Below, piece by piece: positions 5,626 through 52,888 of a stretch of DNA of 64,000 nucleotides. Made by a program: the position numbers and the translations under genes. Below the pieces are notes generated by a model. That model was not told the DNA's origin and ran no database searches. It saw only the letters and a program-made list of their open reading frames with translations. How positions within the stretch are numbered: position 1 is the stretch's first letter; each line of letters starts with the position of its first letter. The stretch is from a bacterium (GTDB lineage Bacteria > Patescibacteriota > Microgenomatia > UBA1400 > UBA12108), in the NCBI GenBank assembly GCA_021788365.1, contig JAJYKS010000004.1, forward strand, positions 28,284 through 92,283, given 5' to 3'.

Positions 5626-6616
5626 GGGACTGCTGCATCATCCATGGCTACTTACCATGGTTGGTATACTCGTGGTGGGGCTAGCGGCGCTTGGTGTATG
5701 GTACGCCAAGAACCGCACCGCACAAAAAATCGTCACTGGTATAGTTGCGAGACCAGAAGAGACAATAAAAAGTGATGGCGGTCGTACCAACATACTACTT
5801 CTTGGCATTGGCGGCGCCGGCCACGAAGGTCCCGATTTAACCGACAGTATGATCCTTGTTTCCATAAATCAGACAACGCATAAAGTTTCCATGATCTCGA
5901 TTCCTCGGGATATATGGGTTACGTCTATGCAGGCAAAAATCAACACGGCTTACTATTACGGGTCTCAAAAAAATGGGGTAACGGGTGGTCTTAATCTCGA
6001 AAAATCGGTGGTGACTGAAGTGACCGGTTTGCCGGTACACTACGTGGTTATGATTGATTTCAATGGTTTTGTAAAGGCAATCGATGCAGTCGGTGGTCTC
6101 GACATTACCGTCGATCGCACGTTCGACGACTACATGTATCCAATACCCGGGAAAGAAAATGCCGAGCCAGAGAGTGCACGCTACGAGCATATCCATTTTG
6201 ACGCGGGTCCAGCACACATGGATGGCACAACAGCCTTAAAATTCGCCCGATCTCGCCACGCAGAAGGAATAGAAGGAACCGATTTTGCCCGGTCAGTTCG
6301 TCAACAAAAGATACTTGTCGCTTTCAAGAACAAACTACTATCAGGTGCGACATTGTTCAACTTCAATACACTACAAAAAGTAGAAAATAGCTTCCTAGGC
6401 TCGATCACTACCGACATCGATGCAGGGCAGTATGGCAGCTTCTTTAAGTTGTTTCTAGCGTTCGAGCAAAGCGGGCAAGTGGTTCAGCCAATAAACATCG
6501 ACGATCTATTAACAAACCCGACAAATACAACTCCCTATCAAGGACAATGGGTATTAATTCCGGTCAAAGATTGGGCAGCGGTACACGACTATGTGGCAAA
6601 AAATCTTTCGCAATGA
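5612..6616 (+). CDS. LCP-family (LytR-CpsA-Psr) cell-envelope polymer transferase
   Basis: N-terminal TM anchor, then 'NILLLGIGGAGHEGPDLTDSMILVSIN...KVSMISIPRDIWV', the LCP core, and a later 'ALKFARSRH' block. Confidence 0.75.
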   Translation: MEKVKGLLHHPWLLTMVGILVVGLAALGVWYAKNRTAQKIVTGIVARPEETIKSDGGRTNILLLGIGGAGHEGPDLTDSMILVSINQTTHKVSMISIPRDIWVTSMQAKINTAYYYGSQKNGVTGGLNLEKSVVTEVTGLPVHYVVMIDFNGFVKAIDAVGGLDITVDRTFDDYMYPIPGKENAEPESARYEHIHFDAGPAHMDGTTALKFARSRHAEGIEGTDFARSVRQQKILVAFKNKLLSGATLFNFNTLQKVENSFLGSITTDIDAGQYGSFFKLFLAFEQSGQVVQPINIDDLLTNPTNTTPYQGQWVLIPVKDWAAVHDYVAKNLSQ

Positions 6617-9041
6617 AAAAAAAGGTCTGACCTTTACGTGGTTGTGGATAGTCGTCTGGCTCCTCGCCATAGCCATCCGTCTATACGGTGCGACCACTCC
6701 AGCCCAGTACTATGATATGGGCACATTCCATTCGTGGGCGATAACAATGGATCGTGTAGGCCCAACTCATTTTTTTAGTTCCACTTGGTCCGACTACATG
6801 CCGCTTCCGCTGTACACGCTCGTTCCTGTTCTGTGGATTTCAACTGCCGCGCATCTTTCATTTGATCTCGTATTTAAACTTATGATGTCCACAATTGAGC
6901 TTACGCTCATTTACTTTATTGCTCGGTCGCTAAAGCACATCACACGATACAAGGGCATCATTGTACTTCTCTTGCTTTCCCCGGTTTTGATTGGCAATAC
7001 AGCTTTCTGGGGTCAAGTAGATACGATCCCGGCACTCATGACTTTACTTTCCCTCCTGCTCATCACACCCGGTGTGAAAAAAGCGACCTCACACACAGGG
7101 TGTGTGATATTCTCCGCCACTCTTTTCGGTCTTTCTGTGGCCTACAAGCCCATCATGCTCGTCGCGCTACCGGTATTTCTAGTGATTATGCTCCGTCGGT
7201 CGTTTTTTCCGTCCATCCTTTATTTCCTAACATCTTTAGCTGCATTTTTGGTGACGGCAATGCCCATGAACGGATCGGGTAATCCCGCTACCGCGTTCAT
7301 ATTGTTGTTCTCTCGCGCCTTGTCTCAATCGGGAACATATCCGTACACAACCATAAACGCGTGGAATCTGTGGTCGGTAATTCCCCATCCCTCGTCATGG
7401 CCACCGGACAATCAAATAGTGCTTGGATTATCCGCGCACACGTTTGGTCTCATACTGTTCTCGCTTGCAGCTGTGTACACCTTGCTTGGATGGAGGAAAG
7501 CGAAATGGGATCGAAAATACGTCTTCCGTATCGTGGCAACGCTCCTCATTGCTTTTTATACCTTTACCACCCGCATGCACGAGCGTCATCTGTTGTTCGG
7601 CATTCCCGCGCTTGCAATTGCTGTGGCCTTTGACACGTGGCTCATTATTCCGTACACGATCTTGACAATTACCTATTCCATAAATCTCTGGGCAGCATTT
7701 TATTGGGTAAATAACAGCCAGACCTGGCCGGTTGCTCCGTGGGTTATGGGGGCGGTATCGTGGGTAAACGTACTGACGACGTTCGCCATGGTAATGATTT
7801 GGGATTGGCCCAAATACACGCAAAAAATCCGACTATGGTTATCTCGTAATAAGATGCTATTCCTCGTACTCTGTCTTGCAAGCTTTTTACGTATCTACAA
7901 CCTGTCCTATCCCAAAGTGTATATTTTCGACGAAGTGTACCATGCCTTTACAGCACGGCAATATCTACACAACAATAAGGCCGCATGGGAGTGGTGGACG
8001 ACACCGCCGAAGGGTGTGGCATACGAGTGGACACATCCACCAGTCGCAAAATATGGCATGGTTGCCGGCATGCTTCTATTTGGAGAGAATAGCTTTGGCT
8101 GGCGTATTGGTTCTGCCATAGCTGGAGTCTTAAGTGTTCTTGGCCTCTATAAATTAGTGCTAACACTAACAAAGAACCGGAGAGCGGCGCTTCTCTCAGC
8201 CTTCTTTGTTTCAATAGAGGGACTACACCTTTCACAATCACGAATTGGCATGAACGACATGTATATGCTTGTATTCTACGTGTGGTCGCTGTACCTAGCG
8301 GTAAAATCGCGGTGGAAATGGAGTGCAATCCTCTTTGGTCTCTCACTCGCGTCAAAATGGTCCGCGCTATACGGTATTATTCCCCTGGGTATCGTGTATC
8401 TCCACGAGAAGTGGTCACTCCTCCGGGCTCCCATTAACATCCTCCGCGCAATACTTCACACCCTACGGTTGCTGCTTATCGTAATAATTATCTATATCCT
8501 TGCCTTTACCCCATTTTTTGTAATTGGTCACACTTGGGGACAGTGGTGGGAACTGCAGCGGCAGATGTGGTACTACCACACCCACCTGAAAGCCACGCAC
8601 GCGTACCAATCAATACCGCTACAGTGGATATTCGACATTCGTCCAGTATGGTATTACGTAGACTATGGCAAAAGCGTGATCAGCAACATCTACGCGCAGG
8701 GCAATCCTCTTGTCCTCTGGTTGGGCCTCGTTTCTTTTGTCATGCTACTGCCAAAAATACGAAAATATCCATACCTACTTCTTAGCGCCAGCTACCTTAT
8801 TTTTACCGTTCCCTGGGCGTTCTCCCCGCGCATTATGTTTTTCTATCACTACCTCCCGAGCGCTTTTTTTCTCTGTAGTCTTCTCGCGCTGTGGCTGTCA
8901 GAGATACCCAGAAAAGTATGGATAGCGTGTATCGCACTTTGTGTTGTGTGCTTTATATTTTTGATTCCGGTGTACTACGGCACGCCCATGCCCCACTGGT
9001 ACTGGAACTCGCTGTTCTCGATTATGCCATCCTGGAAATAG
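6591..9041 (+). CDS. large polytopic membrane glycosyltransferase; the C-terminal half is PMT/GT39-like (dolichyl-phosphate-mannose protein mannosyltransferase family), the N-terminal half is a second multi-TM domain
   Basis: 816 aa with more than 20 predicted TM helices. The PMT loop-1 signature 'YIFDEVYHAFTARQYL' sits at about residue 430, so the PMT-like domain is in the second half. The true start is uncertain: the first 30 nt overlap the LCP gene end and a palindromic repeat (6622-6634), and an in-frame TTG is at 6642. Confidence 0.55.
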   Translation: MWQKIFRNEKKGLTFTWLWIVVWLLAIAIRLYGATTPAQYYDMGTFHSWAITMDRVGPTHFFSSTWSDYMPLPLYTLVPVLWISTAAHLSFDLVFKLMMSTIELTLIYFIARSLKHITRYKGIIVLLLLSPVLIGNTAFWGQVDTIPALMTLLSLLLITPGVKKATSHTGCVIFSATLFGLSVAYKPIMLVALPVFLVIMLRRSFFPSILYFLTSLAAFLVTAMPMNGSGNPATAFILLFSRALSQSGTYPYTTINAWNLWSVIPHPSSWPPDNQIVLGLSAHTFGLILFSLAAVYTLLGWRKAKWDRKYVFRIVATLLIAFYTFTTRMHERHLLFGIPALAIAVAFDTWLIIPYTILTITYSINLWAAFYWVNNSQTWPVAPWVMGAVSWVNVLTTFAMVMIWDWPKYTQKIRLWLSRNKMLFLVLCLASFLRIYNLSYPKVYIFDEVYHAFTARQYLHNNKAAWEWWTTPPKGVAYEWTHPPVAKYGMVAGMLLFGENSFGWRIGSAIAGVLSVLGLYKLVLTLTKNRRAALLSAFFVSIEGLHLSQSRIGMNDMYMLVFYVWSLYLAVKSRWKWSAILFGLSLASKWSALYGIIPLGIVYLHEKWSLLRAPINILRAILHTLRLLLIVIIIYILAFTPFFVIGHTWGQWWELQRQMWYYHTHLKATHAYQSIPLQWIFDIRPVWYYVDYGKSVISNIYAQGNPLVLWLGLVSFVMLLPKIRKYPYLLLSASYLIFTVPWAFSPRIMFFYHYLPSAFFLCSLLALWLSEIPRKVWIACIALCVVCFIFLIPVYYGTPMPHWYWNSLFSIMPSWK

Positions 9042-9089
9042 GGCGGAGAGACCTGAAACTCTCAAATAAGTAAACCGAAGTAGGGTGAG

Positions 9090-9139
9090 AAGGTCTGACT
9101 TGTATGGAAGTGCCCAACCCGAAGGGCAGGTCAGACCTT
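9090..9139. repeat. palindromic repeat element / bidirectional terminator-like nested hairpin between convergent genes
   Basis: AAGGTCTGAC-ttgtatggaagtGCCCaacccgaaGGGCag-GTCAGACCTT: outer 10-bp arms and an inner 4-bp stem. Related copies are at 6622-6634, 49372-49448 and 52817-52857. Confidence 0.6.
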
Positions 9140-10006: not shown

Positions 10007-11703
10007 TTAGGGTCACAGGTCTTCGTGCCGTTAATGGTTGCACAGGCCTGACACTCCACAGAATAGGTGCCGGCCTTGGCAACGGTAAGCTCTGCGGTTG
10101 TGGCGGTTTTGTTGGTGAGCGTTGTCCAGGAGCCAGTGTCTATGCTATAGCGAAAGTTATATGAGATAGTTGCTACGTCGGCGGGTGTTGTGGCTCCTGC
10201 ACACGTAAGGGTGAGCGTCTTGCCGATGGTTATATCAGCATCGGCCGTATTCTTGGTGAGGCTACTGCAGGCGAGGGTGGGGGTAGAGCTATTGGTCGTG
10301 GTAGTGGTGGTAGTTTTGGTTGTATTGGTAACGCACCCCACACCTTGCACGCCCGTCGTCCCCGCCGCACACGTTGTCCAGTGAGGAATATTGCAGTCGA
10401 CAGGACCGCTTTCGGGGCCGCTACCGCCGTTATATCCATCACTCCCGTTGTTCGTCCGACTCGGCATGTCGTTACACCCAATGCCACCGGGCACAAACGT
10501 AAAACCCTTGGCTATCATCGCAGCAATTTCTTCGGGAGTTTGAGTTGGCATGGTTGCAACGATACTAGGTGCAACGGCTCCAGGTTGCGAATTAGTTATA
10601 TTATGGGTTGTTGCATTGTAGAGTGCAGCAGCATTTGCCGTATCAGGGTTCTGCACAAGATAGCGTTTCCCATTCGATATATAAGTCCCAGCAATATTAG
10701 CCGTTGAACTATTCCAATCACTCTGGCTAGCAGGTTGACCAGTATCGTAGTTATATCCAAACCCTCCAGCCACGTTCGACGTTGCTATACCCGTTCCGCT
10801 ATACGTACTAGAGGTATTTCCGCTGGTATTACCCTGACTTCCACTACCAGAAGTAGATCCCCCAGAGGTATTTACATTAGTAGTTCCACCACCACGAGTA
10901 GGGACAGTATGGGTGCCCACCGTTCCACCAGTATTGTTGTTAACAATAGTACCGCCCACCGCTCTGAATGCACCATCAATGAGCACCACAGCGATAGATC
11001 CTGTTTTTGCCTGCGAATAGTAGTAAAGGCCTCCAACGCCGACAAGCCCCACCATAAAGAAGAGCACTCCAACTATTGTCAGGAGTACTTTCTTTCCTTT
11101 CCCCTTTTTCTTTCCCTTTTGACTCCCCACAAGCGGAGAAGGAGGGACTGGTGGAGTAGAGGAAGCAGCTAGAGGTGGCTCCGGTGGAAACGCAGGAGAC
11201 GATACAGTGAGGGTGGTCGTACTCGTCGGTGTGGCAAAAGCCAAAGGTGGCTCCTCGGTTGCGGGTAGAGCTGGTGTCGGTTGCGGGGTTGGAGGTGTAT
11301 TCGGAGTCATAGCGTCAGACACAGTAGGCGACTGTTCGGAAGGTATCTCGGCGACAGTTGGGGAAGTTAGTGGTTGTGTGGGAGAAAGTGGAGTTGCCGG
11401 CTCCGCAGGGGTAGGATCCACAATTGGCTTAGGCTCTTCGGGAGCTGATAGCGGTGCTGGCTCCGAGGGAGCACCGACAAGCTCAGGAGGAACAGTCTCA
11501 GGAGTGGGTTGTGGTGCAGGAGATAGTTCCGGCGGGATCGCCTCCACGGGTGTCGGGTCAGAAGTTGGTGACGAGGGTGTTTGTGGTACCGAAAGCACTT
11601 CGTCTACAACTTTTTGTGGATCAGGAAGTACCGGTAAACCGTTGGGTGCCACTGGTGTCTGTTGAGTATCATCTGTCATAAGTCCACCATAACTAGAGCG
11701 CAA
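9982..11703 (-). CDS. hypothetical single-pass membrane protein with a proline-rich N-terminal region and a Gly/Thr/Cys-rich C-terminal ectodomain
   Basis: 573 aa. About 200 aa of Pro-rich low-complexity sequence precede a Lys-rich stretch and one TM ('VLLTIVGVLFFMVGLVGVGGLYYY'). The ectodomain carries conserved Cys pairs and a poly-Thr run. The gene overlaps its upstream and downstream neighbours, so it sits in an operon. Confidence 0.4.
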   Translation of the reverse strand: MRSSYGGLMTDDTQQTPVAPNGLPVLPDPQKVVDEVLSVPQTPSSPTSDPTPVEAIPPELSPAPQPTPETVPPELVGAPSEPAPLSAPEEPKPIVDPTPAEPATPLSPTQPLTSPTVAEIPSEQSPTVSDAMTPNTPPTPQPTPALPATEEPPLAFATPTSTTTLTVSSPAFPPEPPLAASSTPPVPPSPLVGSQKGKKKGKGKKVLLTIVGVLFFMVGLVGVGGLYYYSQAKTGSIAVVLIDGAFRAVGGTIVNNNTGGTVGTHTVPTRGGGTTNVNTSGGSTSGSGSQGNTSGNTSSTYSGTGIATSNVAGGFGYNYDTGQPASQSDWNSSTANIAGTYISNGKRYLVQNPDTANAAALYNATTHNITNSQPGAVAPSIVATMPTQTPEEIAAMIAKGFTFVPGGIGCNDMPSRTNNGSDGYNGGSGPESGPVDCNIPHWTTCAAGTTGVQGVGCVTNTTKTTTTTTTNSSTPTLACSSLTKNTADADITIGKTLTLTCAGATTPADVATISYNFRYSIDTGSWTTLTNKTATTAELTVAKAGTYSVECQACATINGTKTCDPNWQGATTP

Positions 11704-16730: not shown

Positions 16731-16749
16731 CCGGTATAATATCTCGACA

Positions 16750-18615
16750 ATGGATAACATTCGCAATTTTTCGATAATCGCCCACATCGATCACGGCAAG
16801 ACAACCTTGACCGATCGTCTCTTGGAGGCAACCGGCACCGTGGAAAAGGGGGGAGAGGAGCGTTTGATGGACAGTAATCCCATAGAGCGGGAGCGCGGCA
16901 TCACCATCAAACTTGCCCCGGTACGGATGCTGTATCAGAAAAATACAAATAAAACTCCACAACTGAAAATTAAAAATAATGACTTGAAAAATGCAGATTC
17001 AGAACAGTATGTTCTGAATCTGATTGACACTCCCGGCCATGTCGACTTTGCCTACGAAGTGAGCCGCGCGCTCCACGCCTGTGAAGGTGCGGTTTTGGTT
17101 GTAGATGCAACTAAAGGTGTTCAGGCTCAGACTATAGCCAATCTCGATCACGCGCGGGCAGAGGGACTTGTCGTGATTCCAGTCATCAACAAAGTTGACC
17201 TTCCCGCCGCCGAGCCTGAGCGAGTGGCAAAAGAGCTAGTCGCCCTCGGGTTTGTAAAAGAAGAAATCTTGTCTGTTTCCGCAAAGACTGGTCTCGGAGT
17301 TCCTGAGCTCCTCGAAGCGATTGTTACTCGCATCCCGGCTCCTACCCCCATCACACCCGGCGCGAAGGGCGCCCACACACCGGGTGTCTCAGAACCGCTT
17401 CGTGCCTTTATCTTCAACTCCACTTTTGATCCTCACCAGGGGGTTATCGCCTTTGTAAAAGTGGTTTCCGGCACGCTAACTCGCCGCAACCTTCACAACC
17501 TCTTTCTCTGGGAGACCAAGGAGAAGCTCTCTGCTCTCGATCTTGGCGTCTTTACACCAAAGATGACTTCTATCGATTCATTGGGAGAGGGGATGGTGGG
17601 ATACGTGGCAACCGGCGCCAAAGACATTCACGACGTGACGGTCGGTGACACGGTAACGACAGTGGGAGAAACAATAACACCCATCCCGGGATATGCCCGC
17701 CCGCAACCCATGGTTTTTATGGATGTCTATCCCGTCGACGCGGACAACTATCGTGATCTGGCAGACGCGCTAGGCAAGCTAGCCTTGAATGACGCCGCCT
17801 TGACCGTTCGGCCCGCCGCATCCCCTGCCTTGGGTCACGGCTTCCGTGTGGGTTTCCTCGGTATTCTCCATGCCGAAATCGTGGTCGAGCGCCTATCGCG
17901 CGAGTTCGGAGTAGAAGTGGTAAATACCTCTCCCTCAGTACCGTACCACGTGACGACTCGTGACGGTAATCTCTTGGAGATCTCCTCTCCCGCCGACCTT
18001 CCTTCGCCAGAGACAATTACGGAAATAGAAGAACCTGTAGTCGCTCTCACCATCTTTACGCCAGAAAAATTCGTAGGCGGTATCATGGACTTGACCGTCA
18101 AAAAGCGCGCCACCTTTGTTGATATGCAATATGTCGCCGATCGGGTAAAACTTTCATATCTCATGCCACTCATTGAGATGATCACTAATTTTTATGATTC
18201 CTTAAAGTCAGTTTCTTCTGGTTATGCCTCAGTACAGTACGACCATGCCGGCTACGAGCCGGTGGATGCAGTAAAAGTAGATATTCTTCTCAATAACACT
18301 CCGGCCGACGCCTTGTCCTTTATTTCCCCACGCGAGTTTGCCGAGTCTCGCGCCCGCGCGATCGCGCTAAAACTCAAGGAAACTATTCCTCGCATGCAAT
18401 TCGAGATTCCCATCCAGGCTGTAATTGGCGGAAAGATCATCGCTCGCGAGACCGTCAAGGCATTTAGAAAAGATGTAGAAGCCAAGCTGCACGGCGGCGA
18501 CATGTCACGGAACCGCAAACTCCTAGAAAAACAAAAGAAGGGTAAGAAGCGCATGAAACAGTTCGGCACAGTCGCCGTCCCTCAAGAGGCATTCACCGCC
18601 ATTCTGAAAATCTAA
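16750..18615 (+). CDS. lepA: elongation factor 4 (LepA)
   Basis: 'NFSIIAHIDHGKTTLTDRLLE' is the G1 motif and 'DTPGHVDF' is G3. The LepA-specific C-terminal domain is present. A roughly 14-aa Lys/Asn-rich insertion sits between the G1 and G3 regions. Confidence 0.9.
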   Translation: MDNIRNFSIIAHIDHGKTTLTDRLLEATGTVEKGGEERLMDSNPIERERGITIKLAPVRMLYQKNTNKTPQLKIKNNDLKNADSEQYVLNLIDTPGHVDFAYEVSRALHACEGAVLVVDATKGVQAQTIANLDHARAEGLVVIPVINKVDLPAAEPERVAKELVALGFVKEEILSVSAKTGLGVPELLEAIVTRIPAPTPITPGAKGAHTPGVSEPLRAFIFNSTFDPHQGVIAFVKVVSGTLTRRNLHNLFLWETKEKLSALDLGVFTPKMTSIDSLGEGMVGYVATGAKDIHDVTVGDTVTTVGETITPIPGYARPQPMVFMDVYPVDADNYRDLADALGKLALNDAALTVRPAASPALGHGFRVGFLGILHAEIVVERLSREFGVEVVNTSPSVPYHVTTRDGNLLEISSPADLPSPETITEIEEPVVALTIFTPEKFVGGIMDLTVKKRATFVDMQYVADRVKLSYLMPLIEMITNFYDSLKSVSSGYASVQYDHAGYEPVDAVKVDILLNNTPADALSFISPREFAESRARAIALKLKETIPRMQFEIPIQAVIGGKIIARETVKAFRKDVEAKLHGGDMSRNRKLLEKQKKGKKRMKQFGTVAVPQEAFTAILKI

Positions 18616-19994: not shown

Positions 19995-20513
19995 ATGACG
20001 ACCGCCCACGCTAAAACCCAATCAGTAGTTCCTCCTGCCACGTCCACGCAGACGGACGGTGGCCGTGAACTCCTTGAATCTAAAATCTCTCTTCTAGAAT
20101 CTAAATTGGCCCGCGCCCTTGCCGATTACGCCAATCTCGAGAAGAGGTTTGAGAAGGATAGTGCAAGTGTAGTGAAATTCGCGAATGCCAATTTGCTGGA
20201 GAAACTGCTCGACCTTCGCGATCACCTCGAATCCGCTTCCCTTCACCTCTCGGATAAAAGCCTCCCCATGCTCCTTTCGCTCTTCGACAAAATCTTGAGC
20301 GAAGAGGGGGTAGTCGAGGTAAAAACAGACGGAACCTTCGATCCCGCCGTCATGGAATGTCACGAAACGGTGTCGGGGGAAAAAGACAAAATTGTCTCAG
20401 TCGCTCGTCGTGGCTACATGCTCTTCGGCCGTCTCCTGCGTCCCGCCCGCGTTGTGGTTGGAAGCGGTGAGAAGGTTTCTCCCGCTAACAAGGCGAGCGA
20501 AGCGAGCGTTTAG
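19995..20513 (+). CDS. grpE: nucleotide exchange factor GrpE
   Basis: 172 aa with a coiled-coil ('LESKLARALADYANLEKRFEKD') and a C-terminal beta domain. It sits between hrcA and dnaK, the canonical operon position. Confidence 0.8.
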   Translation: MTTAHAKTQSVVPPATSTQTDGGRELLESKISLLESKLARALADYANLEKRFEKDSASVVKFANANLLEKLLDLRDHLESASLHLSDKSLPMLLSLFDKILSEEGVVEVKTDGTFDPAVMECHETVSGEKDKIVSVARRGYMLFGRLLRPARVVVGSGEKVSPANKASEASV

Positions 20514-20554
20514 TCGAACCTGAGCGTGTCGAAGGTGAGACCGGGAGAAACCTT
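20471..20554. repeat. related palindromic element spanning the grpE 3' end and the grpE-dnaK intergenic region
   Basis: The arms GAAGGTTTCTCCC (inside the grpE C-terminal codons) and GGGAGAAACCTT flank an interior containing GTTTAGTCGAAC-CTGAGCGTGTCGAAGG-TGAGACC. Confidence 0.5.
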
Positions 20555-22562: not shown

Positions 22563-23132
22563 ATGAGCGCAGAATCAATAAATCTAAAAGATTGGATCGA
22601 AGAACTCGTTCACATTCAAAACGATGTCTATTTCCTATCGATAAATAATAAAGATTTTATTACCCTTTCAGAGGAATTTAATAGCAAAAGGCTGAATCCA
22701 TTTGTATGGGAATTTATAAAACGTAATTACGTGACTTCAATGTCAGTGGCTATTAGGAGATTAATGGACAATCGTAAAGATTGCCACAGCCTGCTAAAAC
22801 TACTATCAAACATAGAAAGACGTTCATCGGACATAAATACAAAATGGTTTCTCGAACAATGGCCTGGCGGATCAGTGGAAACAAAGTTTAAAGAGTTTTT
22901 CGGTAATAATAATCACGTAAAAAAGCAAGTCATACAAAATCATATTGAAGAGTTAAAACGAGTTACAAGGGCAATTTGTGAGAGAACCAACATTTATGAA
23001 GCGCACAATGCAAAGAAAAAGGATCTAAAAATAATACCCACATACAGAGATGTTGATGTCGCAGTTGACACAATCAAAGTAGTATATGCCAAATACTGGT
23101 ATCTTCTGAAACAAGGGGATCTTTCGATTTAA
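22563..23132 (+). CDS. hypothetical protein in a strongly AT-rich island segment
   Basis: 189 aa, Lys/Asn/Ile-rich. The DNA is visibly AT-richer than the flanks. No recognisable catalytic motif. Confidence 0.4.
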   Translation: MSAESINLKDWIEELVHIQNDVYFLSINNKDFITLSEEFNSKRLNPFVWEFIKRNYVTSMSVAIRRLMDNRKDCHSLLKLLSNIERRSSDINTKWFLEQWPGGSVETKFKEFFGNNNHVKKQVIQNHIEELKRVTRAICERTNIYEAHNAKKKDLKIIPTYRDVDVAVDTIKVVYAKYWYLLKQGDLSI

Positions 23133-23269
23133 ACTGGACTGATTCTCATTACCTTTGTCTTGCAGGACTGCCACCTCATCCATAAACTTTTCGCCAAATA
23201 GTCTGATAGTTCGAATCATTAAACTTACGAAGTTACCACTATTGGCATAACATAGGTTAGAATAATACT

Positions 23270-23560
23270 ATGAGTATGGAAGATTTTTTCGCAAGACTTA
23301 AGGAAAACGAAGAGCCGACGAAGGAAATTGAAGTTCCATCAAGAAAGGGTGTCCCTACCAATACGCTATTAGACGCATCGGACGAAAGCTCTTCACAGAC
23401 AGCAGATATCGCTGAGGGTCTACGCTGGGGACATACTGAAGGAAATATGCACTCAGGTGGAGCGCTCATGCAACTAGTTAATTTTTGCGCACACGCCATA
23501 GGACTAGGAACAAGAGGAAAGCGCTCACACAACAATCGGGACGATTTTACGATTAGCTAA
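23270..23560 (+). CDS. hypothetical small acidic protein
   Basis: 96 aa. The + frame translates to a charged, protein-like sequence. The overlapping minus-strand ORF (23257..23535) is Cys/Ser-rich and less plausible. Confidence 0.3.
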   Translation: MSMEDFFARLKENEEPTKEIEVPSRKGVPTNTLLDASDESSSQTADIAEGLRWGHTEGNMHSGGALMQLVNFCAHAIGLGTRGKRSHNNRDDFTIS

Positions 23561-23654
23561 CTTGAATGGAATCGTGTGTTAATGTGTCAGCAATTCATTC
23601 TCTCCACGGCGGTGGTCACCAAAGTAAGCTTGACCCATCTGGGATAATAACTCC

Positions 23655-24041
23655 ATGTGTCCAGAACATGCAGGTGTTGTCATAATCGACGACGAAACCG
23701 AAAATCTAGCTGATATCAGCCAGTGTCTACAACAAGAAGGTCATCAAGTTATTGGAGAATATCAAAGTTTCGTTGCAGTAAAAGAGGCTCTTGAAAATAA
23801 GACCTTCCCCTTTGGTCTGGTCCAAGTGATTATCGCCGACGCCGCGGCGGGAAGAAATCCCCTAGGCGCACCTGCAATTCGTGAAATTAGGGCCGCAGCA
23901 GATGAGCTTGGCATTAAAATGGCTTACGTTATTGGCAATAGCTCGATGTATCCAGTCGAAGGAGCGAACATAAATAATATCGGAAAAGATTTAAGCGCGT
24001 TACCCAAGCTAGTTACCGCCGCACCCGACGTCTTAAAATAA
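23655..24041 (+). CDS. orphan CheY-like receiver (REC) domain protein without an output domain
   Basis: 128 aa. 'VVIIDDETENLADISQCLQQEGHQVIGEYQSFVAVKEAL' has the beta1-alpha1 acidic pocket of REC domains, and 'VQVIIADAAAG' has a candidate phospho-acceptor Asp. Confidence 0.4.
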   Translation: MCPEHAGVVIIDDETENLADISQCLQQEGHQVIGEYQSFVAVKEALENKTFPFGLVQVIIADAAAGRNPLGAPAIREIRAAADELGIKMAYVIGNSSMYPVEGANINNIGKDLSALPKLVTAAPDVLK

Positions 24042-24060: not shown

Positions 24061-24675
24061 ATGCCAGGAATATTATTTCTCCACGGCGGCGGCCACTCGA
24101 GCCACACCCGCTACACGAAACTCGAAGAGAAATTTAACAAGCTTGGTATTTTCACTCGTGCTTTCGACCATCACGCCACTTCCCTCGCCGGCCGTCTCGC
24201 CGAAGCAGAGACCGAACTCGCGCAACTAAAAAAAGATCACCACCTTACCGACGCGGACGTTTTCATTTGGGGCTCCAGCATGGGCGGGCACGTGGCCTGC
24301 CGGCTCGCGGAGAGTCACCCCACACTCCGCGGTCTCATCCTCCAGTCGGCAGCCGCCTACTCCGAGGCAGCCGAGAATATCCCGTTTGGCCCAGCCTTCA
24401 CCGCCGAGCTGCAGCGGGAGGGGAGCTGGCAAGATAGTCCCGCCTTCGCGGCAATAGATACGTTCGCCGGTCCCGTACTGGTCATGTACGGGGAGGGAGA
24501 CGACGTGATCCCAGTGGGGGTAAAAGACAAATATCGAGCCCGCGCGGGCAAAAATGGGAACTACTTCACCCTCCCCGGTGCCGGCCACTCACTCCTCCGT
24601 CCCGGCACGCCGAGCGCGTTCACGGCCTGGGACACCATACTCTCCCACGCCATCGACTTTGTTAAACAAAATTAG
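24061..24675 (+). CDS. alpha/beta-fold hydrolase
   Basis: 204 aa. The N-terminal oxyanion region 'ILFLHGGGHSS', the nucleophile elbow 'WGSSMGG' (GxSxG), and later Asp/His candidates ('GEGDDVIP', 'GAGHSL') are all present. Confidence 0.55.
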   Translation: MPGILFLHGGGHSSHTRYTKLEEKFNKLGIFTRAFDHHATSLAGRLAEAETELAQLKKDHHLTDADVFIWGSSMGGHVACRLAESHPTLRGLILQSAAAYSEAAENIPFGPAFTAELQREGSWQDSPAFAAIDTFAGPVLVMYGEGDDVIPVGVKDKYRARAGKNGNYFTLPGAGHSLLRPGTPSAFTAWDTILSHAIDFVKQN

Positions 24676-24771
24676 ATTGCATACCAGGTATGTGATCTGG
24701 TGATATTGGGATAATTCAAGAACTACTATTATTCGAATAATAGTAGTTTTAGAAATTGCTAGAATACTCCT

Positions 24772-25242
24772 ATGTACTCGCACGTCCCCAAAGATTACAT
24801 TTGTCCCATCTGTCTAGGAGTAAGCGGCGTGGAGGGCAAAGGCACACTTCTTCTCCAGCAAGACGTCATATATCAGGGCAAAATCGTTACGGCATTTATT
24901 AATTCGTTCTGGATTAAAAATAACCCCGGCCACGTCATTGTGGTACCCAATGAGCATGTAGAAAACGTATATGATCTGTCTCCCGACCTGGCTACCCACA
25001 TTTTTGTAATTGCCCAGAAAATCTCCCTCGCGATGAAGGTGGCATACAAATGCGACGGCATCACGCTCCTCCAAAACAACGAACCAGCGGGTGGCCAACA
25101 CGCCTTCCACTATCATCTCCACATTTTTCCTCGCTACGACGGCGACGAGCTACACAAACATATGGACAACAAACAGCTCGCTGATCCTGCCTCTCGCGCC
25201 ACATACGCTGCAAAAATCCGTCGCTACTTCAACACGAAATAA
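24772..25242 (+). CDS. HIT-family (histidine triad) nucleotide hydrolase/transferase with an N-terminal CxxC
   Basis: 'QHAFHYHLHIFPR' is the HxHxHxx histidine-triad motif. 'CPICLG' at the N-terminus is zinc-binding-like. Confidence 0.7.
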   Translation: MYSHVPKDYICPICLGVSGVEGKGTLLLQQDVIYQGKIVTAFINSFWIKNNPGHVIVVPNEHVENVYDLSPDLATHIFVIAQKISLAMKVAYKCDGITLLQNNEPAGGQHAFHYHLHIFPRYDGDELHKHMDNKQLADPASRATYAAKIRRYFNTK

Positions 25243-39722: not shown

Positions 39723-41903
39723 ATGAACGTTACCAAAGTAACCACCCAGGTTGGTGGAAAAGATTTAGTACTCGAATACGGCAAGTTTTCCGAACAGGCG
39801 AACGCCGCGGTCCTCGTGACCTACGGCGAAACGGTTGTCCACGTGACGACCGTCATGGCCCACTCAGACACCATGCTCCCGTACTTCCCCCTCAGCGTAG
39901 ACTTCGCCGAGAAGCTCTATGCCGGCGGCAAAATCAAAGGCAGCCGTTGGGTCAAGCGTGACGGTCGGCCGAGCGACGAAGCGATCCTGAAAAGCCGCAT
40001 CATTGACCGCTCCATCCGCCCCCTCTTCCCGAGCTATCTTCACCGCGACGTACAAGTTATCGCCACCGTCCTCTCCGCAGATGTGGACAACGACGGCGAC
40101 ATGCCGGCACTAGTCGCGACCTCCGCCGCGCTCTCCATCTCCGACATTCCCTGGGATGGTCCCATCGCGGCCGTCCGCGTGGGTATGATAGACGGCAAGT
40201 TTGTCGCCAACCCTACCTACGCCGAACGCGAGACGTCCAAACTGGACCTCATCGTCTCCGGTAGCAAAGCCGCGATCGTCATGGTCGAAGCGGGTGCTAA
40301 AGAGGTAACCGAAGCTGAGACTTTGGAAGCGCTGAAATTCGCCCACGAAGAAATTAAGAAAATTATCGCCACCATTGAAGAATTGGTGAGTAAGGTCGGC
40401 AAAAAGAAACAGGAATTTGTCGAAGTAGAAACCATTCCCGCCGAGTTGAAAGCCGAAGTAGCCAAAAAAATCCGCGGAGACGTCGAAGCCCGTATGGGTC
40501 ATCCCGGCGCCGAGGACGGCCTCATCGAGGAGGTGGTAGCCTCGCTCAAAGAGACCTACGCCGAAAAACTGGATAGTCACCAGCTTGGCGACATTGTCCA
40601 CGAAGTTTTGGCAGAGGTCGCCCGCGACTTGACCATTCATAAAGAGACTCGTGTCGACGGTCGCAAATTGACCGAAATCCGTCCCCTCGAGGCCATGGTA
40701 GATCTCTTTCCCCGCCCGCACGGCTCCGCCATGTTCAAGCGCGGTGAGACGCAGGTAGTCTCCATTACCACCCTTGGCTCACCCTCTTTGGGGCAGATCC
40801 TCGAAACCATGACCGACGAGCACGTCAAGCGCTACATGCACTTTTACAACATGCCTCCCTACGCCTCAGGCGAAACGGGCCGCTTCGGCGCCCCCGGCCG
40901 CCGCGAGATCGGCCACGGAGCCCTGGCCGAGCGCGCCCTCGTCCCCGTGCTTCCCCCAGAATCGGAATTTCCCTATGCCATTCAGGTAGTCTCCGAAGTG
41001 ATGAGTAGCAATGGGAGTACCTCCCAAGCTTCCATCTGCGGCTCTACCATGTCCCTCATGGCTGCCGGTGTTCCTATCAAGAAGCCGGTTGCCGGTATCG
41101 CCATGGGCCTCATGACCGATGGAGAAAAATCGGTGGTCCTAACTGACATCGCCGGTGTCGAAGATCACGTTGGCGACATGGATTTCAAGGTGGCAGGAAC
41201 GAAAGACGGCATTACCGCTCTCCAGATGGATATCAAGGTCTCCGGCATCTCGTTTGAGGTTCTGGAAAAAGCTTTGGCGCAGGCCAAAGACGCCCGATTC
41301 CAAATTATGGAGGTCATGCTCAAGGCTATTCCCGAGCCGAGAAAAACCCTCAGCAAATACGCGCCCAAGATCGTTCAATTTGAGATTCCGAATGACAAGA
41401 TCGGCGAGGTCATAGGACCAGGCGGCAAAAACATTCGCCTAATTATGAGTGAGACCGGTACCCAGGTAGACATCGACGACGCGACCGGCGTCGGCGTCGT
41501 TACCGTGACGGGTACGGCGAACGATGGCCTGGACAAAGCGGTCAACTGGATCAAGGGCATGGTACACGTGCCGGTAGCAGGTGAAGAATACGATGGCCAC
41601 GTCACCCGCGTTGAGAGCTATGGTTGCTTCGTCGAATTTACGGCCGGTAAACAAGGCCTCGTCCACGTCTCGCGGATGAGCACCGAATATGTGCAGGACG
41701 CGAGTGCGCTGGTCAAAGTCGGCGACGCCGTCCACGTTTGGGTAAAGGGTGTCGATGATCAAGGGAGAGTAGACCTCTCTATGATCCCACTCGATCAGTT
41801 GAAGCCCGAAGCCGAACGTCCACCTCGCCGAGATTTTGGTGGCCCACGCCGTGGTGGTTTTAGCCGCGGTGGTGATCGCGGTGGCTTCCGCCCTCGCCGG
41901 TAA
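39723..41903 (+). CDS. pnp: polyribonucleotide nucleotidyltransferase (PNPase)
   Basis: Two RNase PH domains, a KH domain ('IPNDKIGEVIGPGGKNIR'), a C-terminal S1 domain and an RGG tail are present. Confidence 0.95.
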   Translation: MNVTKVTTQVGGKDLVLEYGKFSEQANAAVLVTYGETVVHVTTVMAHSDTMLPYFPLSVDFAEKLYAGGKIKGSRWVKRDGRPSDEAILKSRIIDRSIRPLFPSYLHRDVQVIATVLSADVDNDGDMPALVATSAALSISDIPWDGPIAAVRVGMIDGKFVANPTYAERETSKLDLIVSGSKAAIVMVEAGAKEVTEAETLEALKFAHEEIKKIIATIEELVSKVGKKKQEFVEVETIPAELKAEVAKKIRGDVEARMGHPGAEDGLIEEVVASLKETYAEKLDSHQLGDIVHEVLAEVARDLTIHKETRVDGRKLTEIRPLEAMVDLFPRPHGSAMFKRGETQVVSITTLGSPSLGQILETMTDEHVKRYMHFYNMPPYASGETGRFGAPGRREIGHGALAERALVPVLPPESEFPYAIQVVSEVMSSNGSTSQASICGSTMSLMAAGVPIKKPVAGIAMGLMTDGEKSVVLTDIAGVEDHVGDMDFKVAGTKDGITALQMDIKVSGISFEVLEKALAQAKDARFQIMEVMLKAIPEPRKTLSKYAPKIVQFEIPNDKIGEVIGPGGKNIRLIMSETGTQVDIDDATGVGVVTVTGTANDGLDKAVNWIKGMVHVPVAGEEYDGHVTRVESYGCFVEFTAGKQGLVHVSRMSTEYVQDASALVKVGDAVHVWVKGVDDQGRVDLSMIPLDQLKPEAERPPRRDFGGPRRGGFSRGGDRGGFRPRR

Positions 41904-44920: not shown

Positions 44921-46573
44921 ATGAATCAGTTAACACCAATTAAAATAGTTCCCCTTGGAGGGATGCCCAACGTGCACGACAATATGTACGTGTATGAATC
45001 AGCAACCGACGCATTTGTCGTCGACTGTGGCATGGGTTTTCCCGAAGAGGGTATCTCGGGAGTAGATCTCACGATTCCCGATATTCGTTACTTAAAAGAC
45101 AAGCTCAGTAAGCTTCGCGGGATAGTACTGACGCACGGACACGAAGATCACATCGGGGGTCTACCATACGTGATTCCACAACTAGGAGAGCACATCCCCA
45201 TCTATGCGAGTAAGCTGACGGCAGGATTCGTCCGGGAAAAATTTAAGGAATTCGGCCTCGACATCAAAATGATCAACGTGGTGGGAGACCGCCAACCGAT
45301 CTCGCTAGGTATATTTCAAGTAAAGATGATTCCAGTAAATCACTCGGTGCCAGATACCAAGCACCTCGTGATTAAAACCCCGTACGGTAACATCTACCAT
45401 GGCTCAGACTTCAAGTTCGACTGGACGCCAATTGGCCAAGAAGTGTCGGACATTCAATCGATAACCCGCGCCGGTGCAGAAGGAGTAACGCTCCTGTTAT
45501 CAGACTGTCTGCGTGGAGAGAAGGATGGCTATTCTCTCTCGGAATCCATCGTCGAAGAATCGTTTGAGCGCGAGTTCAAGGACGTGGAAAACCGCGTCGT
45601 CGTGACCACGATGAGTAGCAATATCGGTCGCATTCAGCAGGCGCTCTGGGTGGCCAAGAACCATGGCCGCAAAGTGGCTTTTGTTGGTTTCTCAATAGAA
45701 CGAAACGTCAAAGTCGCAGCAGAGCTTGGATTTCTGAAAATCCCGCCGCGCCTGGTCATAGACAAGCGCAAAATAGGCTCACTACCGAAGAGCGAACAGT
45801 GTTTGATCATAGCCGGCTCGCAGGGACAGATAGGCTCGTCGCTCGAGAAAATTGCCGCTGGAGAGCACAAGTTGGTACATCTCGACCCTGGCGACAAAGT
45901 GGTCTTCTCTGCCGACCCTATCCCCGGAAACGAGAGTAACGTCTATCGATTAATAGACATGCTGGCGCACCATGACCTGACAGTTTCCTACTCGGACATT
46001 GCCTCCGACCTTCACGTTTCCGGCCATGCCTCGAGCAAAGAACTCATGATGCTTATTGGTATGACAAAACCCAAGTATGTAATGCCAACAGGTGGGACCT
46101 ACCGGCACGCTGTACACTACAGCAAGCTGGCTCAAAAAATGGGAATACCGGCAGACCATGTCATGCTTCCAGAGAATCAAGAGATCATAATCGAGTCAAC
46201 CGGAGTCGTCCATACAGGCGAGACGCTAGACCTCAAAACGGTGTATGTCGAGTCTGGCGAGATTACATGGGCTGACACGCCAATTAAAGAACGTCAGCTT
46301 ATGTTCCAAGAAGGGGTGGTTGTGGTGCTACTTACGCTGCCATCACAAGGCGGCGCTTTGGATATAGACATTATTCCCAAAGGAATCACTAAATTCATCG
46401 AGCCCGACGTCATGAAACGGGTAAAAGAAGGTCTACGAGCATCCCTGGGATCAGGAGACATACGCCGTGACGCGTTGTATAGTAAAGAAAAAGTGTCCAA
46501 GGAGGTGAGCCGGTTATTCGTAAAAGAAATCGGCAAAAATCCGGTGGTCATTCCAATTATTATTGAGGATTGA
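44921..46573 (+). CDS. rnj: ribonuclease J (beta-CASP metallo-beta-lactamase RNase)
   Basis: 'LTHGHEDHIGGLPYV' is the MBL HxHxDH motif. The beta-CASP and C-terminal domains are present. Length is 550 aa. Confidence 0.85.
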   Translation: MNQLTPIKIVPLGGMPNVHDNMYVYESATDAFVVDCGMGFPEEGISGVDLTIPDIRYLKDKLSKLRGIVLTHGHEDHIGGLPYVIPQLGEHIPIYASKLTAGFVREKFKEFGLDIKMINVVGDRQPISLGIFQVKMIPVNHSVPDTKHLVIKTPYGNIYHGSDFKFDWTPIGQEVSDIQSITRAGAEGVTLLLSDCLRGEKDGYSLSESIVEESFEREFKDVENRVVVTTMSSNIGRIQQALWVAKNHGRKVAFVGFSIERNVKVAAELGFLKIPPRLVIDKRKIGSLPKSEQCLIIAGSQGQIGSSLEKIAAGEHKLVHLDPGDKVVFSADPIPGNESNVYRLIDMLAHHDLTVSYSDIASDLHVSGHASSKELMMLIGMTKPKYVMPTGGTYRHAVHYSKLAQKMGIPADHVMLPENQEIIIESTGVVHTGETLDLKTVYVESGEITWADTPIKERQLMFQEGVVVVLLTLPSQGGALDIDIIPKGITKFIEPDVMKRVKEGLRASLGSGDIRRDALYSKEKVSKEVSRLFVKEIGKNPVVIPIIIED

Positions 46574-49371: not shown

Positions 49372-49448
49372 AAGGTCTGTCCTGCTAAGGAGATCCCGGC
49401 CACCGGCCGAGATGTTTAGTCGAACGTAGTGAGACCAGGACAGACCTT
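49372..49448. repeat. palindromic repeat element of the same family with a longer interior
   Basis: The arms AAGGTCTGTCCTG / CAGGACAGACCTT flank 'ctaaggagatcccggccaccggccgagatGTTTAGTCGAACgtaGTGAGACC'. The interior shares GTTTAGTCGAAC...GTGAGACC with 20506-20545. Confidence 0.55.
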
Positions 49449-49449
49449 A

Positions 49450-49740
49450 ATGTATGTGATACGATTGATGGGTATGGACCTGCCACAAATCTTACTATTG
49501 GTTGTTATTGTCGTCATCTCCGTCATATTGGTTGTAATTGGCGTCCAGATAATTGGACTATTGCGAGACGCCAAGGAGACACTAAAGAAGACGGACGCCA
49601 TCCTCGATGATCTCGGTTTCCTCTCTCGTACACTGACTCGCTCGGGGAGTACTATTGGGCACATGGTTTCTGGCCTCGAATCCGGCGTACAACTTGTCGG
49701 CATGCTCACCAAGCTCGTCGCCCCCAAATCGAAAAAATAG
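49450..49740 (+). CDS. small membrane protein (DUF948-like)
   Basis: An N-terminal TM ('ILLLVVIVVISVILVVIGVQIIGLL') is followed by an amphipathic helical tail. The start is moved downstream of the palindromic repeat that the ORF-track start overlaps. The start remains uncertain. Confidence 0.35.
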   Translation: MYVIRLMGMDLPQILLLVVIVVISVILVVIGVQIIGLLRDAKETLKKTDAILDDLGFLSRTLTRSGSTIGHMVSGLESGVQLVGMLTKLVAPKSKK

Positions 49741-52802: not shown

Positions 52803-52816
52803 TTTGAAATTTGAGA

Positions 52817-52857
52817 ATGGAAGTGCCCAATCCTCCCAGGGAGAAGCAGGTCAGACC
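52817..52857. repeat. partial copy of the palindromic repeat family immediately after the alaS stop
   Basis: It shares ATGGAAGTGCCCAA and GCAGGTCAGACC with the 9090-9139 copy, but the left outer arm is missing. Confidence 0.45.
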
Positions 52858-52888
52858 CTATGGGTACTCTGTGCTATGCTCTATTTGT

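Follow-up and report, generated by a model that had tools for sequence, protein, structure and literature searches.

Small palindromic repeats are a well-known class of genomic element (PMC3116915, PMC3733652, PMC10969869). We describe here a family of this kind found in a 64,000-nucleotide stretch of DNA (the window; positions 28,284 to 92,283 of contig JAJYKS010000004.1, assembly GCA_021788365.1) from a Microgenomates bacterium of the candidate phyla radiation (CPR), in which two complementary 13-nt arms, the clamp, close over one of several structured interiors. REP/REPIN elements, which are mobilised by RAYT transposases, are comparable in several respects (PMC3116915, PMC3733652). They too are short extragenic inverted pairs that fold into one hairpin, they lie mostly 3' of co-directional or convergent open reading frames (ORFs) and occasionally within genes, and they show compensatory upkeep of the hairpin, long vertical persistence and a presumed mRNA-stabilising role as RNA. 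Unlike REP/REPIN elements, our family has no constant unpaired GTAG/CGTC tag, appears, in the loci scanned, to reach tens of copies per Mb at most rather than hundreds, and uses its clamp to hold long, interchangeable, internally structured interiors. The phyla named there as REP/REPIN hosts (PMC3116915, PMC3733652) do not include the CPR (Microgenomates), the host here.

The Rickettsia palindromic elements (RPEs) are likewise palindromic repeats of a small, reduced genome, found both between genes and in frame within housekeeping proteins, with several sequence families sharing one architecture and with mobilising machinery that is not known in either case (PMC10969869, PMC1166351, PMC1458961). 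RPEs measure about 100-150 bp and are frequently in frame (44 in R. conorii, PMC10969869), against one internal case plus protein tails here; the likeness is one of architecture and behaviour, and no sequence relationship is expected. Correia/CREE, ERIC, RUP and BOX, bacterial elements of the MITE (miniature inverted-repeat transposable element) class, share non-autonomy, a size under 100-150 bp, terminal inverted repeats, presence/absence polymorphism and co-transcription with neighbouring genes (PMC10969869). Our family also has the 13-bp inverted ends, small size and lack of coding capacity of MITEs. Unlike MITEs, it has no target-site duplications and no parent insertion sequence with matching ends was found in the loci scanned; moreover, its inverted repeats vary between copies and remain complementary within each, which points to selection on pairing rather than on a sequence bound by a transposase. 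RNase III cuts the transcripts of Correia elements. Intrinsic terminators and terminator-like repeats such as SPRITE (PMC10969869) resemble our family as stable hairpins just past stop codons; unlike these, our elements have no U-tract, have large structured loops, and also occur inside transcripts and at their 5' ends.

Rfam covariance models gave no match at gathering thresholds and none over the elements at E<=10, and the literature on palindromic repeats or MITEs in CPR/Microgenomates yielded nothing related, in keeping with the suspicion of a first-pass annotation of the window that no such family had been described. We conclude that the family is new and apparently undescribed, within a familiar class of small palindromic repeats, and that its fixed 13-bp clamp, exchangeable covarying interiors and strong in-place conservation are an unusual combination.

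Element copies in the window and their architecture

The first-pass annotation had proposed a lineage-specific family, situated at gene boundaries, whose inverted arms are conserved and whose interiors vary. The sequences that it quoted are all present where it placed them, and the proposal itself is borne out by covariance models and by copies in relatives. Three copies (A, B and C) stand out in an inverted-repeat scan of the window; these, a partial copy and a doubtful palindrome are as follows:

9090..9139, + strand: copy A, type 1, with a 13-bp clamp AAGGTCTGACTTG/CAGGTCAGACCTT containing one U.G pair
20472..20554, + strand: copy C, type 2b, with a perfect 13-bp clamp AAGGTTTCTCCCG/CGGGAGAAACCTT and a 57-nt interior
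49372..49448, + strand: copy B, type 2a, with a perfect 13-bp clamp AAGGTCTGTCCTG/CAGGACAGACCTT
52817..52859, + strand: copy D, partial type 1, with interior ATGGAAGTGCCCAATCCTCCCAGGGAGAAG, 3' arm CAGGTCAGACCCT and an ATGGG flank
6622..6634, no strand assigned: 13-nt palindrome AAGGTCTGACCTT, a possible collapsed 'solo' clamp

We gathered loci around grpE (40 genome loci and 80 metagenome loci, numbered with the prefix L) and built leave-out covariance models, R2 from five type-2 copies and R3 from four type-1 copies, all from outside the window. The top three window matches of R2 are B (E 6e-14), C (8.7e-12) and A (2e-4), everything else lying above E 3 apart from the antisense strands of these three. 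R3 recovers A (E 1.7e-17), B through its arms (2e-4) and D through its interior only (0.03). Chance is thereby excluded for A, B and C. The arm 10-mer by itself is not significantly enriched in the window (12 matches with at most one mismatch, 6.9 expected), so the case rests on interior and arm features combined. The general arm pattern is not enriched there either (14 matches, 14.7 expected), which indicates that solo arms are not widespread. Across 800 kb, by comparison, the arm core RGGTCWGACCY occurs 19 times against 1.5 expected, mostly as T...A pairs 26-63 nt apart.

Copy A sits between PMT (stop 9041) and DUF11/CLIPPER (stop 9155), two convergent genes, encloses a 24-nt TATGGAAGTGCCCAACCCGAAGGGG-type interior (TATGGAAGTGCCCAACCCGAAGGG), carries flanks common to other copies (GGTGAG on the 5' side, ATTGG on the 3' side) and folds with a minimum free energy of -27.8 kcal/mol (z -3.4 against shuffles). 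A direct repeat spans the PMT stop (9033-9053) and the 5' flank of copy A (9077-9097), reading GAA(A/G)TAGGG(C/T)GGAGAGACCTG versus GAAGTAGGGTGAGAAGGTCTG; its first unit ends in GGAGAGACCTG, the 3' arm of the L007/L009 element, and may be the remnant of an older insertion. Copy B begins 10 nt past the stop of a RodZ-like gene (49361), immediately 5' of a small membrane-protein gene. Its 51-nt interior runs from GCTAAGGAG through the hairpin ATCCCGGCC-ACC-GGCCGAGAT to GTTTAGTCGAAC and GTGAGAC, its fold is the more stable (-37.4 kcal/mol, z -5.4), and its nearest relatives lie at another locus, murJ-lepA, in L009 and L013. Copy C spans the 3' end of grpE and finishes 47 nt ahead of the dnaK ATG (z -2.4). 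Copy D begins 14 nt past the alaS stop (52802), overlaps the called start of a downstream ORF of 814-818 amino acids, has no recognisable 5' arm and folds no better than shuffles (z +0.35). With the exception of D, folds of the family are very stable (z about -2.4 to -6).

The initial description of four copies with common arms holds for A and B; D has the 3' arm only, and the membership of the 6622 palindrome is uncertain. Two exact blocks, ATGGAAGTGCCCAA and GCAGGTCAGACC, are common to the interiors of A and D, and GCTAA, GTTTAGTCGAAC and GTGAGAC to those of B and C, as had been noticed. Copy C, however, is not the cousin with different arms that it was taken for, as its arms agree with those of B at 10/13 positions and all three differences are compensated on the opposite arm.

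The 6622 palindrome had been placed inside the overlap of the LCP and PMT genes, which in fact covers 6591-6616; it lies 5 nt past the LCP stop (6616), in codons 11-15 of the called PMT ORF (encoding KKGLTF). It is not significant with either leave-out model (best E 9.3), its central T is a C in four sister strains, and about 0.12 11-mers of its kind are expected per window by chance. At murJ-lepA, a solo arm in L051 (position 5299) and a full type-1 copy in L024 have homologous flanks; a solo 13-mer can therefore be a collapsed full element, and the 6622 palindrome is a plausible relic, though one without statistical support. We put the odds that it belongs to the family, at best as a collapsed solo arm, at about even. 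A further solo arm, AAGGTCgaagaGACCTT, occupies the grpE junction of L023. An exact arm 10-mer at 47509 on the minus strand was rejected as a member; it lies in coding sequence without a partner and looks like chance.

Elements measure about 40-87 nt in all, with a clamp stem of 13 bp in nearly all copies (14 in one) around multi-hairpin interiors of 24-65 nt. Both arms fit [AC][AG]GG-N5-CC[CT][TG] and are mutually complementary. The central 5 nt vary between elements (TCTGA, TCTGT, TTTCT, TCTCT, ACTCT, ACACT) and are always complementary within one. The commonest arm, A(A/G)GGTCWGACC(C/T)T, is by itself a true 13-bp palindrome, which explains sequences of the 6622 kind; most type-2 and type-3 arms are not self-palindromic. 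One clamp variant may enclose several interiors and one interior may be closed by several clamps. At least four interchangeable structured interiors were distinguished, in addition to minimal forms:

Type 1: GATGGAAGTGCCCAA together with a short, small-looped GC (G-rich) hairpin; A, D, L021, L103, L024 and L025
Type 2: GCTAAG, a hairpin, (A)TGTTTAGTCGA, then GAGAC
Type 2a: GCTAAG, a hairpin, ATGTTTAGTCGA, a variable stretch, GAGAC; B, L009:2217, L013:7249 and L051:16513
Type 2b: the grpE-tail form; C, L007 and L009
Type 3: a domain of ~45 nt opening with AACAGGAG, with two to three covarying hairpins; L026, L028, L031, L051, L032:7154 and L032:19506
Type 4: AAAGGACTC...GCAGCCCAAA; L032:10393 and L032:5412
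Minimal and solo forms: L051:3534, L051:5299 and L023

The 3' flank has G at +4 in 16/16 full copies and is often ATTGG. On the 5' side, GGTGAG, GTCAG or CCAA flanks many copies and in some cases lengthens the helix. Several unpaired motifs (GCUAAG, GUUUAGUCGA, GAGAC, GAUGGAAGUGCCCAA and AACAGGAG) are conserved across loci and genomes and would imply a sequence-specific partner.

Base pairing is maintained through compensatory change. Type-2 copies were collected by orthology rather than by a repeat scan and so provide unbiased evidence of pairing; in the eight-sequence alignment, 7 of the 13 clamp pairs are changed on both sides and 0 are broken. The orthologous type-2 element of the L007/L009 kind, for example, has the clamp CAGGTCTCTCCTG/CAGGAGAGACCTG, altered in sequence with pairing retained. 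In a table of 15 distinct arm pairs, 9/13 pairs are changed on both sides and pairing reaches 99% of cells, a percentage inflated by the many arm pairs that came from the inverted-repeat scan. None of 500 shuffles of this table reaches the observed pairing, and slid registers fall to 30-57%. Interior hairpins of type 3 covary as well (e.g. TGGCC/GGCCA versus TGATT/AATCA).

Distribution among relatives and contribution to proteins

The GrpE relatives of the window organism carry the labels Woese-, Collier- and Shapirobacteria. Elements are confined to relatives whose GrpE is at least about 52% identical, and the grpE-region loci scanned from more distant Patescibacteria (GrpE below about 50% identity) contain no copies. 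Outside the grpE junction there is roughly one copy per 40 kb across close relatives, with none in many. Three spacers recur, namely grpE-dnaK, murJ-lepA and rpsT/murJ, and the first two are occupied as follows:

grpE-dnaK, type 2b: the window, L007 and L009
grpE-dnaK, type 1: L021, L025 and L103
grpE-dnaK, type 3: L026, L028, L031 and L051
grpE-dnaK, type 4: L032
murJ-lepA, type 2a: L009 and L013
murJ-lepA, type 1: L024
murJ-lepA, type 3: L032
murJ-lepA, solo arm: L051
murJ-lepA, empty: other genomes

At least 10 relatives have an empty grpE-dnaK junction, among them the closest (GrpE 75% and 67% identical), and one subtype may occur at differing loci in different genomes. The comparison of related genomes for presence or absence, which the first-pass annotation had put forward as a check, thus reveals filled, differently filled, collapsed and empty spacers at both grpE-dnaK and murJ-lepA. 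At the level of sequence, these homologous spacers show repeated entry into a few permissive sites in different lineages: the grpE 3' end, murJ-lepA and rpsT/murJ.

Some lineages carry unrelated GTAG-tagged palindromes at the grpE-dnaK junction. This second family occupies the grpE 3' slot in L013 (~10465-10500), L015, L107 and L108-L110, and consists of GC-rich hairpins preceded by GTAG (e.g. CGTAGGGGCGGACCCCCGTGTCCGCCC), the classical GTAG-tagged REP layout. In the murJ-lepA spacer, the copies of L009, L013 (type 2a) and L032 (type 3) stand immediately after a conserved TGGTATAAT -10 box. An extended -10 sequence, TAACCTCTGGTATAAT, lies only about 10-15 nt 5' of the lepA start in many loci (window 16731-16749; L007 ~6790-6825; L009 ~2195-2216), and elements insert exactly between box and start codon. 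A box so near the start implies a very short or leaderless lepA mRNA.

Sister strains were compared at A-D. All of them have A and C, one strain contig covers B and D and carries both, and D is identical in strain L182. Copy A is identical in 7 sister-strain contigs save for one interior substitution. The region 3' of dnaK is strain-variable (window 22563-24041, L002 11171-12617): the window strain has a HEPN/AbiU2-like gene (22563-23132) in this island, and sister strains L002 and L005 have a PIN-domain gene instead.

Every element that fills the grpE junction has the conserved ..VVVG(N/S)G codons on one side and a TTAATTAA-like motif on the other, and brings a stop codon of its own; copies of types 1, 2b, 3 and 4 all encode GrpE C-terminal tails. 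In the window, the 5' half of copy C makes up the last 14 codons of grpE (KVSPANKASEASV*), with the stop TAG inside a conserved GTTTAG, and the Pfam domain ends at residue 156 of the 172 of GrpE. An identical ..SEASV* tail ends GrpE proteins that are just 57-59% identical to that of the window, and their contigs carry the orthologous type-2 element. Type 2 has stops in all three sense frames and can therefore only end an ORF. A mini-ORF within type 2 (ATG TTT AGT CGA...) was rejected, as its start is not conserved (GCG in C, GTG in L007) and its spacing to the internal AAGGAG is wrong.

One internal in-frame case was found beside these tails. It is a 72-nt type-3 copy of L032, present also in the metagenome twin L114, that occupies the variable linker of IF-2 (infB) in frame; the peptide that it encodes in L032, GLSSTGDLAESQVGTPEAGGESL, closely resembles the GrpE tail GHSLTGDVAEGQGGTPKAEGVSL and is read in the frame that also yields the GrpE tails of L026 and L028. 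Sense-frame translations of elements also include GDLAESQVGTPEAGGESL and KGSDLKGSAQPE. Gene callers place the small-protein gene downstream of B at 49450-49740. They start the gene downstream of D, whose ORF spans 52811-55267, at a GTG inside the element (52823), and it is plausible, as had been suggested, that the ORF N-termini at 49429 and 52811 are merely translated element sequence.

Possible mobility and RNA function, and alternative explanations

Judged by comparison of the copies, this is a structured, sense-oriented, insertion-polymorphic family under selection for both pairing and sequence. Identity between orthologous copies is 90-98%, compared with 54-64% for third codon positions in the neighbouring dnaK/lepA and 74-88% for the AT-rich spacer just 3' of the copies. 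Even copies that are not orthologous keep 78-88% identity in comparisons of genomes with third positions saturated at 43%. Such slow evolution indicates that the elements are not junk in decay; either the copying process keeps the sequence uniform or every copy has a use where it stands. Every copy with co-directional flanking genes has the polarity of those genes, and the non-Watson-Crick cells of the 15-arm-pair table comprise 6 G.U versus 1 A.C on the sense strand. The balance favours a single-stranded form of the sense strand (RNA or one DNA strand), although it is not decisive.

On balance, we lean towards lineage-restricted, non-autonomous hairpin insertion elements that are REPIN/RPE-like in behaviour, not in sequence, that are now under purifying selection and that probably act in mRNA. 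We infer that they would spread by a hairpin-recognising, strand-specific DNA mechanism, for instance an HUH/Y1-type single-strand transposase encoded elsewhere in the genome. Retained copies may then act in operon mRNAs as very stable structured modules that block the exonucleases PNPase or RNase J and/or serve as double-strand RNA processing sites; either would uncouple neighbouring genes, for instance grpE and dnaK, in their expression. The window encodes both exonucleases:

39723-41903: PNPase gene
44921-46573: RNase J gene

Several observations weigh against this explanation. Selfish spread accounts for the strong conservation in place no better than a host function would. No strain-level presence/absence difference was seen at A-D, and sister strains, being alike, give no record of recent movement. 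Copies are few (3.5 in the window), and 35 kb from three close relatives contain none. Neither the window nor roughly 1.8 Mb of related loci revealed a transposase, an integrase, or a longer element or parent insertion sequence bounded by the same ends, and no RAYT occurs among the window genes with Pfam matches. No direct repeat of at least 2 nt is common to both flanks across copies. On the sense strand the inner hairpin of type 2a contains a C.A mismatch, which the antisense strand would turn into G.U; this conflicts with the wobble bias of the clamp. The inflated percentage of the 15-arm-pair table should also be counted here. The earlier comparison with REP/MITE-type repeats accordingly stands for short palindromic, polymorphic elements and fails for REP or MITE proper, which would bring a GTAG/CGTC tag or target-site duplications. 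Among the tabulated flanks of 24 copies there is no GTAG/CGTC at a constant position; GTAG abuts the stem only in the type-3 copies of L026/L028/L051 (3' side) and in L032:5417, and elsewhere is absent or at variable distance (9 nt upstream of copy A).

Other element classes were tried and rejected. Duplication of a palindromic target does not apply, as the central bases are complementary (T...A) rather than identical and most type-2/type-3 arms are not self-palindromic. Integron attC sites have the core sites R''/R' RYYYAAC ... GTTRRRY; the arms here begin [AC][AG]GG and end CC[CT][TG], and the window has no integrase. A DNA-uptake sequence is ruled out on copy number (19 cores in 800 kb), and the cloverleaf-like type 3 is not called as tRNA or tmRNA in the window or in eight loci. 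In IMG/VR, patterns for the type-2 and type-1 interiors gave zero matches and those for arm pairs and type 3 gave only unrelated or chance sequences, so that there is no sign of a phage vector. Three IMG/VR contigs (L054 3864-3908, L088 6374-6417, L098 5814-5856) contain inverted pairs AAAAGGGGTCAGACCCCTT...AAGGGGTCTGACCCCTTTT with a similar GGTCWGACC core; their interiors and hosts differ and they are GC-rich, and they probably represent an independent hairpin or terminator family.

The main rival explanation is that the elements are non-mobile, host-encoded cis-regulatory RNA modules: clamp-closed RNAs, read by a dedicated RNA-binding protein or RNase, which duplication or convergence brought to a few operon junctions (the heat-shock operon, murJ-lepA), there to set relative expression. 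It explains equally well the identity of orthologous copies (90-98% versus 54-64% at synonymous sites); the conserved unpaired motifs, which would be superfluous for a mere exonuclease barrier, the invariable sense orientation and the low copy number also speak for it. We nevertheless consider such an origin rather unlikely, because four unrelated interiors occupy one 15-nt slot at the grpE 3' end while the closest relatives are empty, stop codons are overwritten, one copy lies in frame in infB, there are truncated (D) and collapsed solo copies, and no Rfam family matches. The cis-regulatory explanation is compatible with the one that we prefer, from which it differs mainly in origin. It is improbable that the elements are instead double-stranded DNA sites, with paired operator-like arms around a spacer, for a dimeric DNA-binding or recombination protein. 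The quasi-palindromic AAGG-N5-CCTT of both arms (the commonest being a true 13-bp palindrome), the solo palindromes (window 6622; L051:5299) and the position of several copies beside -10 boxes would suit this idea. However, the central 5 nt differ between elements and always complement within each, which independent operator sites would not require; moreover, most type-2/type-3 arms are not self-palindromic, interior hairpins covary, and the arm pattern is unenriched in the window.

The first-pass annotation had also raised a lineage-specific family of intrinsic transcription terminators, to which the stable hairpins just past stop codons at A, B and D, with A between convergent genes, lend some plausibility. 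This reading is very improbable: no copy is followed by a U-tract on its sense strand (the 3' flanks in the window are ATTGG, AATGT, AAAGT and ATGGG, and the T-run of B is antisense only), the structured loops are large (24-65 nt), and C, the murJ-lepA copies and the infB copy lie within transcription units or at their 5' ends. In addition, canonical terminators, AAAAGCCCCGG-loop-CCGGGGCTTTT, already follow dnaK in many of these genomes, and a terminator scan of the first 20 kb called no window copy in that span. A mere chance resemblance of a few GC-rich hairpins has next to no probability. The lack of significant enrichment of the arm 10-mer alone and the unremarkable 6622 and 47509 sequences would fit it, but leave-out E-values of 1e-11 to 1e-17 and recurrence elsewhere with compensatory changes refute it for A, B and C and leave it possible only for 6622 and 47509.

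To the insertion elements that we favour, we add one speculation, which we regard as doubtful. The clamp may be a portable 'socket' for moving different folded RNA domains about CPR genomes, with a single clamp-specific factor both spreading the cassettes and reading them in mRNAs. The factor would be an unrecognised single-strand transposase or an RNA-binding or processing protein, and the cassettes would give genomes otherwise regarded as streamlined both selectable operon punctuation and a supply of new tails and linkers for proteins. If so, the very slow evolution of the copies would mean that the host depends on them.

Other palindromes and implications for the lineage

The window and its relatives contain palindromes of other kinds. 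Within lepA, some 215-270 nt from the start, the coding sequence contains a perfect 12-13-bp hairpin with a 3-4-nt loop (window 16994-17022; L019 6978-7005; L181 7602-7629). Its stems vary by genome (CAGATTCAGAACA/TGTTCTGAATCTG, TCAAATTTAACT/AGTTAAATTTGA, TCAAATTCAGAA/TTCTGAATTTGA), and it looks like a conserved structure within coding sequence. An AT-rich palindrome of 20+20 nt (24715-24754) occupies the spacer between 24061-24675 and 24772-25242, and a perfect 14+14-nt palindrome, CACTTCGATACTAC/GTAGTATCGAAGTG, lies inside alaS (51797-51824).

The elements described here mislead gene callers, as they extend the grpE ORF and may give spurious N-termini at 49429 and 52811-52823, and in metagenomes they could mark the lineage. 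The genomes of CPR bacteria, about 1 Mb in size, are usually called streamlined and repeat-poor. With a conserved, structured, insertion-prone family in their core operons (heat-shock, lepA, infB), these bacteria would have a counterpart to REPINs and RPEs. Such a family would open a way into post-transcriptional control for organisms not yet amenable to manipulation, and would show a route by which new segments arise in essential proteins such as GrpE and IF-2.

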